From: Leptolyngbyaceae cyanobacterium
GTDB lineage: Bacteria; Cyanobacteriota; Cyanobacteriia; Phormidesmidales; Phormidesmidaceae
Length of the DNA: 64,000 nucleotides
Assembly (NCBI GenBank): GCA_965263355.1
Contig: CBDHHL010000032.1
Coordinates: 3,584,001 to 3,648,000 of the forward strand
Direction: 5' to 3'
The first letter of the stretch is position 1. Each line of letters begins with the position of its first letter. Both the position numbers and the translations under genes were made by a program. The notes beneath the pieces were generated by a model, which did no database searches, had not been told where the DNA came from, and saw nothing but the letters and a program-made list of their open reading frames with translations. This document shows, piece after piece, positions 24,733 to 61,755 of this stretch.

Positions 24733-25905
24733 TTAAGCTATCTGTTGTACAAAATCGTTGAGGCGCTCCATACCCTTCTCAATGGTAGCCATATCAGTGG
24801 CGTAGGAGACGCGAATACCGCTATCGGCCCCAAAGGCGATGCCTGGAACAGCGGCGACATATTTTTCATTGAGCAATCGGGTGCAAAAGTCTAGGGACTT
24901 TAAACCTGTTTTACTAATATTGACAAACAGGTAAAACGCTCCTTCTGGCGGTAAACAGCTGAGGCCAGGGATTGCATTGATTAGATTGACCATGGCTGTA
25001 CGCCGTTTGGCAAATGCTTGGCGCATGGTTTCGACACAATCTTGGGACGATTCCAGAGCTGCGATCGCACCATACTGGGCAAAGGTACACACATTAGACG
25101 TGCTCTGGCTTTGTAAGGTGTTGGCCGCCTTAATCAGTTCAACTGGTCCAGCCAAATACCCTAATCTCCAGCCAGTCATGGCGTACGCTTTAGCAAATCC
25201 ATTACTGACAATGGTCCGCTCAAACATCGCGTCACTAACCGCACCAATGCTGAGGTGTTGGGCCCCATTGTATAAAATTTTCTCGTAAATCTCGTCGGCA
25301 ACGACCCAGATATCATTGGCTACAACCACCTTGGCTAAGGCCTGAACTTCGTCTGGCGTGTAGACCATACCAGTGGGGTTAGAGGGAGAATTAAAAATGA
25401 GAAATTTGGTTTTGGGCGTAATCGCCTGTCTTAGTTGCTCAGGCGTAATCTTATAGCTACTTTCTGCGGTCGTCGGTACAATCACTGGCTTACCACCAGC
25501 GAGCTTAACCATTTCTGGGTAGCTCACCCAGTAAGGTGCTGGTATCAGCACTTCATCCCCCGGTTCAAGGGTGATCATCATTAGGGCATAGAGGGAATGC
25601 TTGCCGCCGTTAGTAACGATGATGTTCTCAGGGTTGTAGGGTAAACGATTGTCAGTGCGTAGCTTTGTTGCGATCGCGGTCCTCAATTGAGGTTCCCCTG
25701 CAGCTGGTCCATACCGGGTTTTACCATCGTCAAGAGCCTGTTTAGCCGCGGCACGAATATGGTCTGGAGTATCAAAATCAGGCTCGCCAGCACTGAAACC
25801 GCAAACATCTAGTCCTTCAGCCTTCATGGCCTTGGCCTTAGCCGAAATTGCCAAGGTCATTGAAGGTGTTACTTGCTGCACTCTAGCAGCTAATTTGATA
25901 CTCAT
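24733..25905 (-). CDS. aspC: PLP-dependent class I aminotransferase (aspartate aminotransferase)
   Basis: 'AGEPDFDTP', 'NSPSNPTG', 'DEIYE', PLP lysine in '[14 protein letters not shown]'. Confidence 0.9.
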
Positions 25906-26021
25906 TAGAACGCTGTTGGCCTCCGGCTCAAAACCCTATTCTGATTAGCTTAGATCGATTTGTGATGGAGATCGCAAATCTTTATGATTTGCTTGAATCA
26001 TGCTCTGTCGCTGTACCAGCC

Positions 26022-26119
26022 AAAAAAAACTCCCCTGTGTTATCAGAGGAGCTTGTGTTCTTGATCTGTGTGAAGGAAACGGTGTGAGGAGAGTTTGTCA
26101 TGGGCAATGCCCAGGCAAG
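26022..26119 (-). ncRNA. Candidate Yfr1-like small RNA
   Basis: TTGCCG-16-TACATT promoter, 5' hairpin, single-stranded CUCCUCACACC, 8-bp terminator plus U8. Confidence 0.55.
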
Positions 26120-26483
26120 ATCCCAATGTAAGGAGCACAGCTCGTACGGCAAATTGGCTGTAATAACTGTGATGATGCTTTTCAGGAACTCCAATGTTTG
26201 GATTACATCCAACTATCGGATTGATTTAATCATCTCCCAGATAGAGTGGCCTTGATGTGATTTCAGGGTGCAAAAATTGTGATATCCCAGTCTGTTATCG
26301 GTGATATCAGGGAGAGTTATCGGTGATACTGATTGTGTGGGTGTGTGAGCGATATCACTGAGAAATAATTCCTATTAAGAATGTTGTATCAGTGGTGCTG
26401 CGGTTGCGGATTCATCAAAATGAGGCATATCAAATCGCATTGCTATGCCATTGAGCGCTATTCAATCAGTACAGTAGTTGGCC

Positions 26484-27275
26484 CTAAACCAATAACCAAA
26501 TGGCCAATCCCCAAAACGGAATAAACCGTAATGCTCGACGTTGCTCTTCTGCAGGAATAATGGCCCCCATCAGCCAAATCTGAAACACCCAGAACAATGT
26601 GATATCAACGGTGAATGCCAGGGTGACCCGATTATAGAGAATTTGCTGACCTAGATCCCTAAAGCGACTTAACACCCCGCCCAACTCAGGCCTATTAAAG
26701 CAAAACCAGATAACTGCCAAATTCCCAACGGTCAGACCTAACGCGCCAAAGCAGCGAGCCAGTATACCTTTGCTGGCTACGCGAGGAGCATACACAGGCT
26801 GCCTCAGTCGCAGTGCCATATAAGGCATTAAAAAAACATTGGTGAGCAACATTGCCAGTCCCCAAAGCATCAGTTTGGGTAGACCCTGACTACGCTCATC
26901 GATGAGCATCAGGGGTAAAAACATAAAAATCCAGGCTTCTGCCAGATTAAAAAAGCCTTGGGCAGCGGGATTAACCATGGGGGCTTGCATGTAGCTAAAC
27001 CCCAAAACGTTTAACAAGGGCAGAATAAAAAAGAAATTGAGAGATTCATTGAGAATCTCCCGGATAGTGTCGGGTTGGATGGCCCATATGGGTTCCCCTG
27101 GTAACCAACCAAGTGGTGACAGTAGTAGTAGGCCAATATAAACGATGGTTGCTGTCCACAACAAAGCAAACAGACTGTTCTGGCCTTGTCTAGTTGCGCA
27201 TAACGAAGATTCAGACGGTGTTGGTGAAGGGGGGATAGGCGGGACTGACTTACTCATTTTTGACGTCCCCACCAA
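26484..27275 (-). CDS. Conserved hypothetical integral membrane protein
   Basis: About 6-7 TM helices; overlaps the upstream NTF2-like gene. Confidence 0.75.
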   Translation of the reverse strand: MVGTSKMSKSVPPIPPSPTPSESSLCATRQGQNSLFALLWTATIVYIGLLLLSPLGWLPGEPIWAIQPDTIREILNESLNFFFILPLLNVLGFSYMQAPMVNPAAQGFFNLAEAWIFMFLPLMLIDERSQGLPKLMLWGLAMLLTNVFLMPYMALRLRQPVYAPRVASKGILARCFGALGLTVGNLAVIWFCFNRPELGGVLSRFRDLGQQILYNRVTLAFTVDITLFWVFQIWLMGAIIPAEEQRRALRFIPFWGLAIWLLV

Positions 27276-27688
27276 TAACGTACTAAAGGTGTCACCAAAC
27301 GGATAATAGTGAATGCGGCTTTCCCAGGCTTAAGGGGCGGCTCTACACAATCACGGGCAAAACTGAGTTTGCCATTATTAGGGGAAAAACGATAAAAACT
27401 CACACCCCGCCCATTGGGAAAAGGGATGCCACTAAGTTCAATATGCCAGGTCACACCCACAGCTAAATCATCTCCGGCAATATCATCAATGACAAATTGT
27501 AGATCGTCCGGAACTGCCTGACATGACTCTGTAAATACTCCTTCTACCGCTGCTTTACCTATAAAGGTGGCAGAAAAGTTTAAGTCTTCATAACAGCATT
27601 GGTCGTCAATTAGGGTAACTGCCTCGGCAACATCCCGATGATTAATGGCTGCGTACATGGCCCGAATCCGATTGATTGCTTGACTCAT
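27254..27688 (-). CDS. NTF2/SnoaL-like (ketosteroid isomerase-like) protein
   Basis: 'YAAINHRDV...CYEDLNF...GVTWHIEL...PFPNGRGVSFY...RDCVEP'. Confidence 0.85.
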   Translation of the reverse strand: MSQAINRIRAMYAAINHRDVAEAVTLIDDQCCYEDLNFSATFIGKAAVEGVFTESCQAVPDDLQFVIDDIAGDDLAVGVTWHIELSGIPFPNGRGVSFYRFSPNNGKLSFARDCVEPPLKPGKAAFTIIRLVTPLVRYWWGRQK

Positions 27689-27976
27689 CTCGAATTGTTC
27701 ACACTAGTTTTATTCCTTTTAAAGTAGGAAAGTTTAATCTCTTCAAAAATCTTCCTGATACACTACTGTGATTGTTGTCACAACTATTAGTGATTGTTGT
27801 CAAATCGCCTATGCGTATTTGAAAAGCCCATTGTATTTAGGGTTTAGCTTCCTAGGAAGAACTTTAATCTTCTTGAAGCTATCCTGAAAACTTCTGGGTA
27901 TCCTTACTTTTTTATATAAGAAGTTAAGTGTTTTTGCCAGAATAGGTTCAATTAATAATGATGAGCATGTGACCGA

Positions 27977-31852: not shown

Positions 31853-31934
31853 GCGGATGTGGTGGAATTGGTAGACACGCACGCTTGAGGGGCGTGTGGC
31901 TTATGCCATGCGAGTTCGATTCTCGCCATCCGCA
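31853..31934 (+). tRNA. tRNA-Leu(GAG)
   Basis: Acceptor stem GCGGATG/CATCCGC, anticodon arm CACGC-TTGAGGG-GCGTG, long variable arm, GTTCGA T-loop. Confidence 0.95.
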
Positions 31935-51229: not shown

Positions 51230-51245
51230 TGTGATCAGAATCACA
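51230..51245. promoter_or_regulatory. CRP-family (SyCRP1-type) binding site
   Basis: Perfect TGTGA-N6-TCACA (TGTGATCAGAATCACA). Confidence 0.6.
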
Positions 51246-51525: not shown

Positions 51526-53862
51526 ATGTCTACGACTGCATCTACCTCAATTCCGTGTTCTGCGGAGGAAATTGCTTCTGAAGGATTAAAACCAGGCGAA
51601 TATGAGGAAATTATTCAGCGTTTAGGGCGTCACCCGAATCGGGCTGAGTTAGGCATGTTTGGTGTGATGTGGTCAGAACACTGCTGTTATAAGAACTCTC
51701 GGCCTTTGCTCAAGCAGTTTCCCACTGAAGGGGCACGTATTCTGGTTGGTCCTGGGGAAAATGCGGGGGTGGTAGATGTTGGAAATGGTCAGCGGCTGGT
51801 CTTTAAAATTGAGTCTCACAATCACCCGTCAGCGGTAGAACCCTTTCAAGGGGCGGCAACTGGGGTAGGCGGGATTTTACGTGACATCTTTACCATGGGG
51901 GCACGGCCCATAGCGGTTTTGAATGCGTTGCGGTTTGGGCCGTTGAATGATGCCAACACGCGACGGATTTTTACTGGTGTGGTCTCAGGAATTTCTCACT
52001 ATGGCAACTGTTTTGGTGTACCGACGGTGGGCGGAGAAATCTATTTTGATCAGGCTTACATGGGTAATCCTTTAGTCAATGCCATGGCCATTGGTCTGAT
52101 GGAAACTGAGGAGATTGTCAAATCTGGTGCCTCGGGCATCGGCAATCCGGTGCTTTATGTTGGGTCTACTACGGGCCGTGATGGGATGGGGGGGGCTAGT
52201 TTTGCCAGTGCTGAGCTAACTGACGAATCAGAGGCTGATCGACCTGCAGTTCAAGTCGGCGATCCATTTCTAGAAAAGTCTTTGGTAGAAGCTTGTTTAG
52301 AGGCCTTTAAGACCGGTGCGGTGGTAGCGGCTCAAGACATGGGAGCTGCCGGGATTACCTGTTCTACTTCTGAGATGGCGGTGAACGGCGGTGTGGGGAT
52401 TGAGTTAGATCTCGATAAAGTACCTGTGCGGGAAACGGGAATGGTGCCCTATGAGTATTTACTGTCCGAATCCCAGGAACGTATGCTTTTTGTTGGGGAA
52501 AAGGGACGAGAACAGACGCTGATAGATATTTTTGAGCGTTGGGGACTCCATGCAGTGGTCGCAGGTGAAGTGATCCAAGCGCCCATTGTGAGGATCTTAT
52601 TTCAAGGTAAGGTAGCCGCTGAAGTTCCGGCCTCTGCTCTAGCAGATAATACGCCGCTGTATCAGCGTGAGGTTTTGGCAGAGCCTCCGGCCTATGCACA
52701 AATGGCCTGGGCTTGGCAAGAGAGTGATTTACCGGATTGTTCTGCTGACGGTATTGAGGGCCAATCTTGGCATAGTGTGATGTTGGCGCTATTGGGTACG
52801 CCGACTATTGCTTCAAAGCAATGGGTGTACCACCAGTATGATCATCAGGTTCAAAACAATACAGTAATGCTTCCAGGAGGAGCTGATGCAGCCATTTTAC
52901 GACTGCGACCCTTGGAAGGGGATGATGGTTCTAGCAGTCATTCGGGCGTCGCGGCAACAACGGATTGTAATCCTCGCTATGTGTATCTTAATCCCTATGA
53001 AGGAGGACTGGCTGCTGTTGCAGAAGCTGCGAGGAATTTAAGCTGTGTAGGGGCAGAGCCGATTGCAGTGACGGATAATTTGAATTTTAGTAGTCCTGAA
53101 AAGCCGGTTGGTTACTGGCAGTTGGCGGAGGCCTGCCGAGGTCTGGCTGATGGCTGTCGTGCCTTTGATACACCAGTTACGGGGGGGAATGTCTCGCTTT
53201 ATAATGAAACCGTTGATAGTGAGGGCAAGCCCCAGCCCATATATCCCACTCCAGTGGTTGGTATGGTCGGTGTGATTGATGACCTGGATAAGATTTGTGG
53301 TCAGAGCTGGCAAAACCCTGGTGACCAAATATACCTCCTAGGTTTATCCCTGGGGGAAAATGCGGATGGTAGAGTGACCCTGGGGGCATCGGAATATTTG
53401 AAGGTTATCCATGGTCAGGTAGCAGGACATCCTCCTAAAGTAGATGTTGAATTAGAGCTAAAGGTGCAAGCTGCTTGTCGTTACGGCATTCGTCAAGGGT
53501 GGATTACGTCAGCCCATGATTGTGCTGAGGGAGGGGTGGCGATCGCACTTGCCGAGTCTGCCATCGGGGGGAATCTAGGCGCGACTATCACTCTGCCCAG
53601 CAATGGGCAACGCTATGACACCCTGCTGTTTGGTGAAGGTGGTGCTCGAATTATTGTCACCGTAGCGCCTAACCATAGACTTATTTGGGAAACGTATTTA
53701 AAGGAGTCCCTGACTCACCAATGGGCGTTAATCGGCACTGTCGCCGATGCCAACGCTCAGCTAACCATCCAAACAGCCGAGAAAGAATGCTTGATCCATT
53801 TGGAAGTTACTGCCATGGCCGACTGCTGGCGTTACGCTATAGAAAGAGCCCTTGTTGATTAA
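51526..53862 (+). CDS. purL: Phosphoribosylformylglycinamidine synthase subunit PurL
   Basis: 'MWSEHCCYK', 'ESHNHPS', 'QDMGAAG', 'SESQERM', 'GGNVSLYN'. Confidence 0.97.
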
Positions 53863-56063: not shown

Positions 56064-57452
56064 TTAGAACTTGAAGGTGGAACGAATTACACCATAGAGA
56101 CTGTCGTTATCATCACCATCTAGGTTTCCGTAAACAACAGCAGGAGTTAGAGACCAGTACTTGTTGATCTTAGCGTTGTAGTAAGCTTCGATAACTTCAT
56201 CCTCATCAAAGTCTTGAGCATAGTAAGCACCAAAACCGCCAAAGGCAGCACCAAACTGGAAGCTCTCATCACCATCTTGGTCAGCGAAGTAACCACCAAC
56301 TTCGAATCCACCGAAGTCAAGGCTTAACAGACCTGCGATAATGCCATCAACACCGCCACCACCAACGGCTTCACCATCCATGTAGGTGATAGCTGCATCA
56401 ACTATGCCATCAGTTAGGAAGTTCAACTGAGCAATATACTCAAAGCCATCAAATAGACCAATCTCTGAGTCATTACCGTCAGCAGTTGCATAGCCTAGGT
56501 CAAGGATGATGTTGTCAGTGAAAGCAACGTTGAAGCCAACACCAAAGGAACCACCGCCGATACCTAGCTGATCATAAAAGATAGGGCCACCAGGATCAGC
56601 TACAGAAGGACCATCGAAAGGAACGATAGTGCTAGTTACAAAGTCATCGGAAACAGTGCTGTTAGCGGAGATGATAGCGGAAACACGACTACCGATGGGG
56701 AAGGAGTAGTAAACGTCATCAAGACCAACGTTATCTTCCAGACCGTTACGAGGACCACTTTGGCTAGCTAAGCCACCAAATACACCCCGGAAAGAGCGAC
56801 CATCATCGTCACGATCACTAGCCTGTAGACGAATACGCAAACGGTCTTCACCAGTGAAGCTAGTATCGAAGTTCAAACGAGCACGATACTCAAAAGTAAC
56901 TTCGTCTTCGTCTACGCCACCACCATCGAAGTCTTCAGCTTCGAAAGGAACGATCAGGTGAGCATCCAATTGACCCTTCAACTTAGTAGTTGTAGAGAAC
57001 TGGTTAGCTTCCAGCTCAGCCACGTCAGCTTCTAAAGTGTCAACACGACCACGAATAGTAGCAAGCTCAGCAGCGAACTCTTCCTGCAAGCGACGAATAG
57101 TCTCTAGAGCTTCAGGATCGCCACCATCGATTAGCTGAACGATTACATCTAAACAAGCGTTCAAACCAGCAGCAAACTCGTAGCGAGTCATAGCGCGGTT
57201 GCCGCGGTAAGAGCGATCGGGATAACCCTCAAGACAGCCATACTCCTCTACTAGGCGCTGCAGTGCAGTGTAAGCCCAGTCAGAAGGAAGAACATCGGAT
57301 AGTTCGGAAACACTAGTAACCTGAGCTAGCTGAATGGACTCGGAGTTGCTCAGAGCATCAACACTTACAGTCTCAGCAGCAACACCAGTGCTAGCAAGGA
57401 CAGTTCCCACTAGAAGTGGGCTAGCCGCTAGGGCCTTCCACAAATTAGACAT
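56064..57452 (-). CDS. Cyanobacterial outer-membrane porin (SomA/SomB type, SLH plus OprB-like barrel)
   Basis: Signal peptide, 'QVTSVSELSDV.PSDWAY', 'TRYEFAAGLNACLD', 'NQFSTTTKL', terminal Phe; GAGGAG RBS before ATG at 57452. Confidence 0.93.
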   Translation of the reverse strand: MSNLWKALAASPLLVGTVLASTGVAAETVSVDALSNSESIQLAQVTSVSELSDVLPSDWAYTALQRLVEEYGCLEGYPDRSYRGNRAMTRYEFAAGLNACLDVIVQLIDGGDPEALETIRRLQEEFAAELATIRGRVDTLEADVAELEANQFSTTTKLKGQLDAHLIVPFEAEDFDGGGVDEDEVTFEYRARLNFDTSFTGEDRLRIRLQASDRDDDGRSFRGVFGGLASQSGPRNGLEDNVGLDDVYYSFPIGSRVSAIISANSTVSDDFVTSTIVPFDGPSVADPGGPIFYDQLGIGGGSFGVGFNVAFTDNIILDLGYATADGNDSEIGLFDGFEYIAQLNFLTDGIVDAAITYMDGEAVGGGGVDGIIAGLLSLDFGGFEVGGYFADQDGDESFQFGAAFGGFGAYYAQDFDEDEVIEAYYNAKINKYWSLTPAVVYGNLDGDDNDSLYGVIRSTFKF

Positions 57453-57706
57453 TATTTTAGTTCTCCTCACACCTAGGAAGAAAATAGTGACTAGCTGAAT
57501 TGCTAGACCACATTTAATCTTTTTGCCTGAACTGAAGAGCATATTCAAGTTGTTTAGAACAACTTAGCTAGTACTCAGCAATTACTATGGCTAATGCTAG
57601 CAGATCTCTCTATGAAGAGCTAGCAACGTAAGCTACCTTTTAAGCAATTTTTACAAGTAGCTTGCCTAGTGACGGTAACGTGGTTTCTTTGCTTAAAACA
57701 GTTGAG

Positions 57707-61683: not shown

Positions 61684-61755
61684 TCCTCAGTAGCTCAGTG
61701 GTAGAGCGGTCGACTGTTAATCGATTGGTCGTAGGTTCGAATCCTACCTGGGGAG
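61684..61755 (+). tRNA. tRNA-Asn(GTT)
   Basis: TCCTCAG/CTGGGGA acceptor stem, anticodon loop CTGTTAA, GGTTCGAATCC T-arm. Confidence 0.96.

Follow-up and report, generated by a model that had tools for sequence, protein, structure and literature searches.

The element described here lies on the minus strand at 26022-26222 of the window (the whole 64,000-nucleotide stretch of Leptolyngbyaceae DNA that was analysed), between aspC and a membrane-protein gene of no known function; neither neighbour is guaB or trxA. The downstream neighbour (24733-25905, minus strand) encodes an aspC-like class I aminotransferase, for which the best families are aspartate transaminases, below their curated cut-offs. 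Upstream of this gene, and separate from the element, is a conserved promoter-like block (25945-26000, minus strand) in which 33 of 56 columns are invariant among 21 aligned sequences. The block includes an inverted repeat, GCAAATC-N5-GATTTGC, which is a possible operator. On the other side, the closest named relatives of the upstream neighbour come from Leptolyngbya sp. PCC 7375, Heron Island J and Leptothoe, which suggests a Leptothoe/Adonisia-like lineage. A SnoaL-like ORF and a 263-aa membrane-protein ORF (26484-27688) are fused as a protein of about 390 aa in many relatives. Elsewhere, the window holds a SLH/OprB (Som-type) porin gene (56064-57452, minus strand; NCBIfam por_somb) and two tRNA genes (31853-31934 and 61684-61755).

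An AspC query among 251 genomes identified two close genomes (85-87%), and the intergenic DNA of the aspC region of one of these matched 20 of 150 genomes of the family. The alignment (n=21) comprises the window and all 20 matching genomes, and the element lies upstream of aspC on the same strand in every sequence. Conservation begins at 26222, six bases past a GAT(G/T)AT box, which gives an inferred non-coding RNA of about 201 nt (186-206 nt in relatives and 198 nt here, counted to five T of the tail). A preliminary description, whose quoted letters and coordinates were all confirmed in the window, had proposed an RNA of about 100 nt transcribed from TTGCCG (26152-26147), a 16-nt spacer and TACATT (26130-26125). 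A conserved minus-strand non-coding element ending in a terminator was borne out by the alignment, whereas the size and 5' end were not, as conservation starts about 100 nt further upstream. The letters of both boxes are present, but a promoter role for them is not supported: TACATT is intact in 3/21 sequences, with A at its second position in 6/21, and TTGCCG is intact in 9/21. Both boxes fall inside predicted stems of the long RNA, and a promoter scan did not call them. The element is real and conserved, but was mis-delimited. It is very probably a stand-alone RNA, and its long form of about 200 nt is likely.

Strong matches to a covariance model of the element (R1) were limited to the 20 training loci, with no further full-length copies in the 150 family genomes. 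Of 10 weak matches in the family, three resemble plain terminators, while seven proved to be a different small RNA, here called X, on the opposite strand. No new homologues were found by covariance model with strict filters in a sample of 151 genomes of the class. A plasmid search returned one match, attributable to chance, and matches in viral and metagenome pattern scans were likewise chance-like, with element-like sequence in none and X in two of 119 metagenome loci. The element had been likened to Yfr1; it matches no Rfam family, either in the window (at the gathering score or at E 10) or in eight relatives. Two coding candidates were also rejected. The start of a plus-strand 51-codon ORF from 26100 reads AAG in 17, GAG in 2, ACG in 1 and ATG in 1 of 21 sequences, while a minus-strand small ORF from TTG/ATG/GTG at 26101 has TCG in 2/21, is frame-shifted in 6/21 and crosses the terminator.

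Upstream of the element lies a CRP-type promoter array that the preliminary description missed, as it did a 15-nt complement to X. The array starts with a full CRP-type palindrome, GTGA-N6-TCAC (26344-26359, minus strand), the right half of which is at -126 from the inferred start; the palindrome is present, with this half at -126 to -129, in 20/21 sequences. It is followed by four RTCAC half-sites with a 22-bp period (26256-26327, minus strand), at -104, -82, -60 and -38, all four of which keep their positions within 2 nt in 21/21 sequences when RTCAY is allowed. About 22 bp past the last half-site is the inferred -10 box (26229-26234, minus strand), found in all 21 sequences as GATGAT (17) or GATTAT (4). 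A three-box pattern matched the element locus in 5/5 genomes and only three other places in total. Cyanobacterial CRP sites have been described, in the part of the source available, as TGTGAN6TCACA about 22 bp before the -10 box (PMC2633013). At that spacing only the right half is present here, the full palindrome lying at -126 (20/21), and the -38 half-site coincides with the expected place of the right half of a promoter-proximal CRP site. Taken together, the invariant -10-like box, the 22-bp array and the palindrome point to a single start, 26222, and to an activator that would belong to the CRP family, of which there are about 8-11 domain matches above the cut-off per genome. That four of the five boxes are half-sites is unusual for CRP. 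Two further near-perfect CRP-type palindromes occur in the window, at 27767-27782 (between the SnoaL-like and TPR genes) and at 51230-51245, upstream of an ORF at 51526.

The predicted fold of the 201-nt RNA has a z-score of -3.0, and that of the 3' 100-nt piece is -2.9 on the minus strand and -1.8 on the plus strand relative to shuffles. At the 3' end is an intrinsic terminator (26022-26052, minus strand), for which the earlier reading held: its minus-strand stem contains a U-G pair, and a U8 run follows at 26029-26022. Among the 21 sequences, 6 of its 11 pairs have changed on both sides. Counting all named pairs, 9/54 show such changes, namely six in the terminator, two in the tip of stem P3 and one in hairpin P5, with none in P1, P2, basal P3 or P4 (n=21). 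Without the terminator, the body folds better on the sense than on the antisense strand in just 10/21 sequences, which is no strand preference. The terminator is therefore well supported and the inner structure modestly so.

Within the body, the 5' hairpin P1 (26190-26220, minus strand) forms in most single folds, although its inner pairs are often broken, it has zero compensatory changes (n=21) and it might just as well represent two DNA palindromes in tandem, ATCC-N7-GGA. Stem P3 (26136-26171, minus strand; CACAG/CUGUG) has a base with 97.6% of cells paired and a variable tip, and covers the proposed -35 box. P5 (26095-26118, minus strand; 81.5% of cells paired) is the hairpin previously placed at the 5' end; it is present, but internal in the long RNA. 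A second C/U-rich motif (26057-26080, minus strand), from which a 23-mer at 26080-26058 is exact in 15/21 sequences, also forms the 3' strand of a predicted long-range stem, P2. This stem would pair with the site complementary to X, with a mean probability of 0.39 and zero compensatory changes.

The position of the element directly upstream of aspC, on the same strand in 21/21 sequences, raises the question of whether it is an aspC leader, in which X or a ligand would switch the terminator and allow read-through into aspC. This is extremely improbable. When the site complementary to X is blocked, the terminator pairing probability stays at 0.96 and seed accessibility is unchanged, so no antitermination is predicted, and there is no match to a riboswitch family. 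Moreover, aspC has its own promoter-like block, and a similar block occurs in two element-less relatives (loci L114 and L116), while about 100-130 extra bases separate terminator and block in 4/20 relatives. In L114 and L116, a terminator also precedes the aspC block, about 110-250 nt upstream of aspC, and in L116 a CTCACACC stretch is found before that terminator.

RNA X is a predicted small RNA of about 55 nt, with 22 invariant 5' letters in 19/19 aligned genomes followed by a variable terminator (loci L177:1440-1530, L178:1465-1585 on G297:C91, and L186-L215). Of 251 genomes searched, 93 contain the X 19-mer, and a control gave no match. As raw genome counts that ignore kinship, X is present in 91/135 genomes with hetR and 2/116 without, and both of the latter are one-mismatch matches. 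A GGGN5CCC box lies at -48 to -51 in all 35 X promoters read, against a background of 24/1333 windows. A GGG-N5-CCC-type motif is needed for HetR binding, according to the portion of the report consulted (PMC4649674). X is mostly single-copy. It matches no Rfam family and is not among the RF02399 (NsiR1) matches of five genomes even at E 0.5. At three mismatches it is absent from Nostoc LEGE 12450, a Rivularia MAG and two further genomes, and a fifth has one match, which is intragenic. X appears to be a widespread and apparently undescribed small RNA, its transcript being predicted from sequence.

In the lineage of the element, X lies behind genes that we take from their translations to be gltA-like and before those presumed to be ndhA-like. 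A second copy of X at L365 (G275:C21:88257) has a different terminator, has no HetR-type box and lies among small ORFs without known function. In two other genomes of the family, aspC is divergent from a hetR copy (G240:C15:249881-252821 and G214:C21:36353-39355).

The 5' part of the element contains a site (26179-26194, minus strand) with 15 nt complementary to the X seed, or 16 bp with a G-U; the window letters 26193-26179 are the exact complement of 15 letters of X. Invariance within the element peaks at this anti-X site (12/12 columns), whose 14-nt core is exact in 19/21 sequences, the remaining two carrying A>G. X is present in 18/20 element-bearing genomes, and two smaller assemblies show the element alone. 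For a 17-nt complement of X, the element is the sole one-mismatch site in 4/5 genomes and is tied at two mismatches in the fifth. The exact 15-mer is otherwise rare, and only two other wobble-tolerant sites were found in five further genomes, both in coding regions and one of them on the coding strand. Among 12,792 slices of the window, the one holding the anti-X region pairs best with X (-29.8 versus -22.8 kcal/mol), and its pairing was reached by none of 1000 shuffles. By comparison, none of 12 NsiR1-family RNAs paired with the element better than shuffles.

After opening of both RNAs, the net energy of the element with X is -12.5 to -14.6 kcal/mol in three cognate pairs. For the window RNA it is -11.9 kcal/mol (with X from G297), weaker than with the porin (-18.0) or Yfr2 (-17.9), and the anti-X site is predicted to be mostly paired. 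As X is invariant, no compensatory change can be demonstrated. Nevertheless, because a near-invariant stretch of the element is the exact mirror of X, the element is predicted to soak up X, and functional pairing of the two RNAs seems reasonably likely from their complementarity.

A similar arrangement is found in a sister lineage. A 57-aa ORF, divergent from hisG in Phormidesmis-like genomes and with Phormidesmis-named relatives, is present in 39 of 150 family genomes and in none of the 20 genomes with the element, so that the two occupy non-overlapping genome sets (loci L379:4036-4209 on G133:C14, and L382-L411). Thirty small-ORF loci were read, and in 29 of them a full CRP-type site is followed about 38 nt later by an anti-X motif. 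The motif is exact in 14 and within two mismatches in 25/29, and some loci have further anti-X-like copies in the 3' UTR. The order of CRP site and then anti-X would repeat the design of the element in a protein-coding gene. The 57-aa protein falls in no Pfam family, and neither NCBIfam nor PDB yielded a convincing relative. The small-ORF mRNA is the only candidate mRNA target found for X, and hetR mRNA offered no consistent site in the 14/20 loci that were readable.

Recurrence of the 15-mer in three settings is also what would be expected if it were a DNA operator for a transcription factor acting behind the starts of X, the element and the small-ORF mRNA, the RNA then being merely a long Yfr10-like sRNA. 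In each of the three, the inferred start is followed within about 45 nt by the motif, which is partly palindromic and whose substitutions at the small-ORF sites (A>G 5, C>T 5, G>A 6, T>C 2, other 3) are not clearly biased towards G-U. However, wherever the motif occurs in the other transcripts it is antisense to X: its reverse orientation has at least three mismatches at all 29 small-ORF loci. In addition, X consists of little beyond 22 invariant letters and a terminator in 19 genomes, a far stricter conservation than that of the HetR- and CRP-type boxes in the same promoters, and the rarity of the exact 15-mer elsewhere also argues against an operator. This explanation is therefore considered improbable.

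The pairing could also work in the reverse direction, with X as the regulator and the long RNA as its target. Cleavage or decay would then remove the RNA, or free a 3' part of about 100 nt that has the Yfr1 architecture of hairpin, seeds and terminator and acts on porin and other envelope mRNAs. This is consistent with the sister lineage, where a protein-coding mRNA carries the site at its 5' end, the place expected of a target. It also fits the ancient and invariant nature of X relative to a lineage-limited element, and the ability of the 3' 100 nt to fold independently as a hairpin, open seed and terminator. On the other hand, the element has no conserved ORF to control, and the extra anti-X-like copies in some small-ORF 3' UTRs look like decoys. 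The seed is predicted to be open with or without X, so release of the 3' part would not be needed. Overall, X as the regulator is an unlikely reading, and sequestration of X is the preferred one.

The 3' part of the element carries a Yfr1-like seed (26081-26092, minus strand) with 10/11 letters of the Yfr1 motif, predicted to be single-stranded with an unpaired probability of 0.7-1.0. As previously described, UCUCCUCACACC (26092-26081) is the exact 12-nt complement of GGUGUGAGGAGA (57473-57462), which covers the Shine-Dalgarno region of the porin gene (57462-57473, minus strand), a candidate target of both this seed and canonical Yfr1. The site, unchanged in 4/4 orthologues, precedes by 9 nt the porin ATG at 57452, from which the orthologues align. 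This is the longest exact match of the element within the window. A shuffled 99-nt element produced a 12-nt exact match anywhere in the window in 128/300 trials but in 50 start-codon regions in only 36/3000, so what is unusual about the match is its position alone. Of the 50 start regions in the window, that of the porin comes out on top for this seed.

Among the 21 sequences, the exact seed is found in 5. Twelve consecutive pairs with the porin site, allowing G-U, are retained in 13/21, and the run drops to 8 in 2/21, including one genome (G144) with an unchanged porin site. Canonical Yfr1 is a separate RNA in the same lineage, with its own RF01116 match in 5/5 relatives, which agrees with the earlier view that the element is distinct from it. 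Yfr1 already pairs with the porin site over 11 bp and the element over 12 bp, so the match extends a known Yfr1 target by a single base pair. In the window, the net porin pairing energy favours the element (-18.0 kcal/mol, against -16.1 for the Yfr1 of G297), but in 3/3 cognate genomes the advantage lies with canonical Yfr1. A second porin is a weak target of the second motif (-4.7 and -6.4 kcal/mol).

The preliminary description had combined these features into an sRNA of about 100 nt, transcribed from TTGCCG/TACATT, that represses the porin. The open seed and its first rank among start regions remain in favour of such a role, and Yfr1 represses som porins likewise by blocking translation at the ribosome-binding site (PMC2796815, as far as that source was available), with other envelope targets given in the accessible part of PMC6974561. 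Porin specificity is weakened by the varying seed and the better energy of Yfr1. With promoter boxes that are unconserved and buried in predicted stems, and a seed less conserved than the anti-X block, the short porin repressor is very improbable as an account of the whole element. Porin repression as such is plausible, although the porin seed is not the most conserved part; judged by the modelled pairing, its chance falls slightly short of even.

Sequence comparison shows that the element is conserved, with its promoter geometry, its terminator and its 15-nt complementarity to X; that X exists as a conserved sequence whose distribution is linked to hetR; and that canonical Yfr1 is separate. 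The mechanism preferred here, and every function assigned to the element, is deduced from these comparisons. CRP would nucleate on the full site at -126 and spread across the four half-sites to -38, with transcription starting at 26222, while HetR would activate X through the GGGN5CCC box. X may then enter at an unpaired AAAA after the anti-X site and open stems P1 and P2, the outcome being its sequestration. If X is sequestered, cAMP-CRP activity would damp a HetR-driven sRNA. As a side function, the 3' seeds would add to Yfr1-type repression of envelope mRNAs, their predicted partners being the ribosome-binding site of the porin and also Yfr2 (the latter at -13 to -18 kcal/mol). The chances are about even that the element is, as this implies, a CRP-induced RNA of about 200 nt that sponges X with its 5' part and carries secondary Yfr1/Yfr10-type seeds in its 3' part. 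A Cyano-1/Yfr2 match is found in 5/5 relatives, above the cut-off in two of them. In all five, it lies about 2 kb from an opposite-strand HTH_Crp_2 match (G297:C166, G144:C17, G291:C18, G265:C5 and G326:C11).

Several known systems resemble parts of this element. Like Yfr1 (RF01116), it has an unpaired CUCCUCACAC seed between a hairpin and a terminator and modelled complementarity to the ribosome-binding site of a Som/OprB porin and to the 5' end of Yfr2. Yfr1 RNAs are 54-69 nt long with an invariant 11-mer, according to the part of PMC2190773 consulted, and have two stem-loops around a 16-20-nt linker. The element is about 201 nt long with an extra 5' domain, its linker exceeds 40 nt even in the short form, and it has no RF01116 match. 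The exact ACUCCUCACAC is absent from the window; the element has UCUCCUCACAC, which varies among relatives. It also lies beside aspC, whereas a guaB/trxA neighbourhood is common, though not universal, for Yfr1. Other RNAs with the Yfr1 motif include Yfr10, the Yfr10-like Syr5, Yfr104 and two Nostoc RNAs; those of the Yfr10 type are conditionally expressed and carry the motif in a hairpin loop (PMC6778093, sections available). The element may share with these the status of a second, lineage-limited RNA with a Yfr1-type motif and no shared synteny or structure. It differs from them in an imperfect motif (10/11) placed in a predicted multiloop linker instead of a hairpin loop, in lacking an Rfam hit, and in its CRP-type promoter array and anti-sRNA site, which those sections of PMC6778093 do not mention.

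Bacterial sRNA sponges cover the conserved seed of another sRNA. The predicted anti-X site would do the same, as does Yfr2/Cyano-1 (RF01701), the antagonist of Yfr1 and Yfr10 (PMC6778093, in the part seen). Unlike Yfr2, however, the element has a partner other than Yfr1, a perfect complementarity of 15-16 bp, mRNA-type seeds of its own and an unrelated sequence. In the literature searched, which was mostly non-subscription, no RNA was found to combine a sponge site, a CRP array and envelope seeds. Neither RNA was found in the accessible portions of PMC4734099 (or six of its supplements), of PMC4143802 (or two supplements; that study omitted RNAs under 300 nt), or of PMC12873609 and PMC6596454. 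PMC12873609 screened 202 genomes, and its supplement may list either RNA.

A second RNA with the Yfr1 motif would alone be ordinary, given the several in the part of PMC6778093 consulted; what is surprising is the anti-X module, together with X itself. X is a widely conserved candidate output of HetR, and the element would be a natural antagonist with which to probe it. A bolder and rather doubtful proposal is that heterocyst-less filamentous cyanobacteria possess X as an ancient HetR-driven RNA of about 55 nt, and that this locus is its dedicated cAMP-CRP-induced sponge, in which the cooperative 22-bp array would serve as a threshold switch and the sponge would be joined to envelope seeds of the Yfr1 type; the sister lineage would use the CRP-driven small-ORF mRNA instead. 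If true, cAMP signalling, HetR and outer-membrane control would cross over at the RNA level. To our knowledge, the role of HetR in filamentous cyanobacteria that make no heterocysts is an open question.

X itself is reminiscent of NsiR1 (RF02399), sharing a length of about 55 nt, a conserved 5' seed followed by a terminator, and a tie to HetR. It is distinguished by a different seed, the absence of an RF02399 match, its mostly single-copy occurrence and its absence from the two named heterocyst formers searched. In 10/29 small-ORF loci (L382-L410), a GGTRYATC-like stretch complementary to the NsiR1-family seed precedes the small-ORF ATG, with duplex energies not above those of shuffles in the five pairs tested. 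NsiR1-family copies above the Rfam cut-off number 5-6 in genomes of the element lineage and 2-3 in Phormidesmis-like genomes (L571-L597). Among the same loci, several copies have DIF1 TCCGGA promoters and one weaker copy has a HetR-type box.
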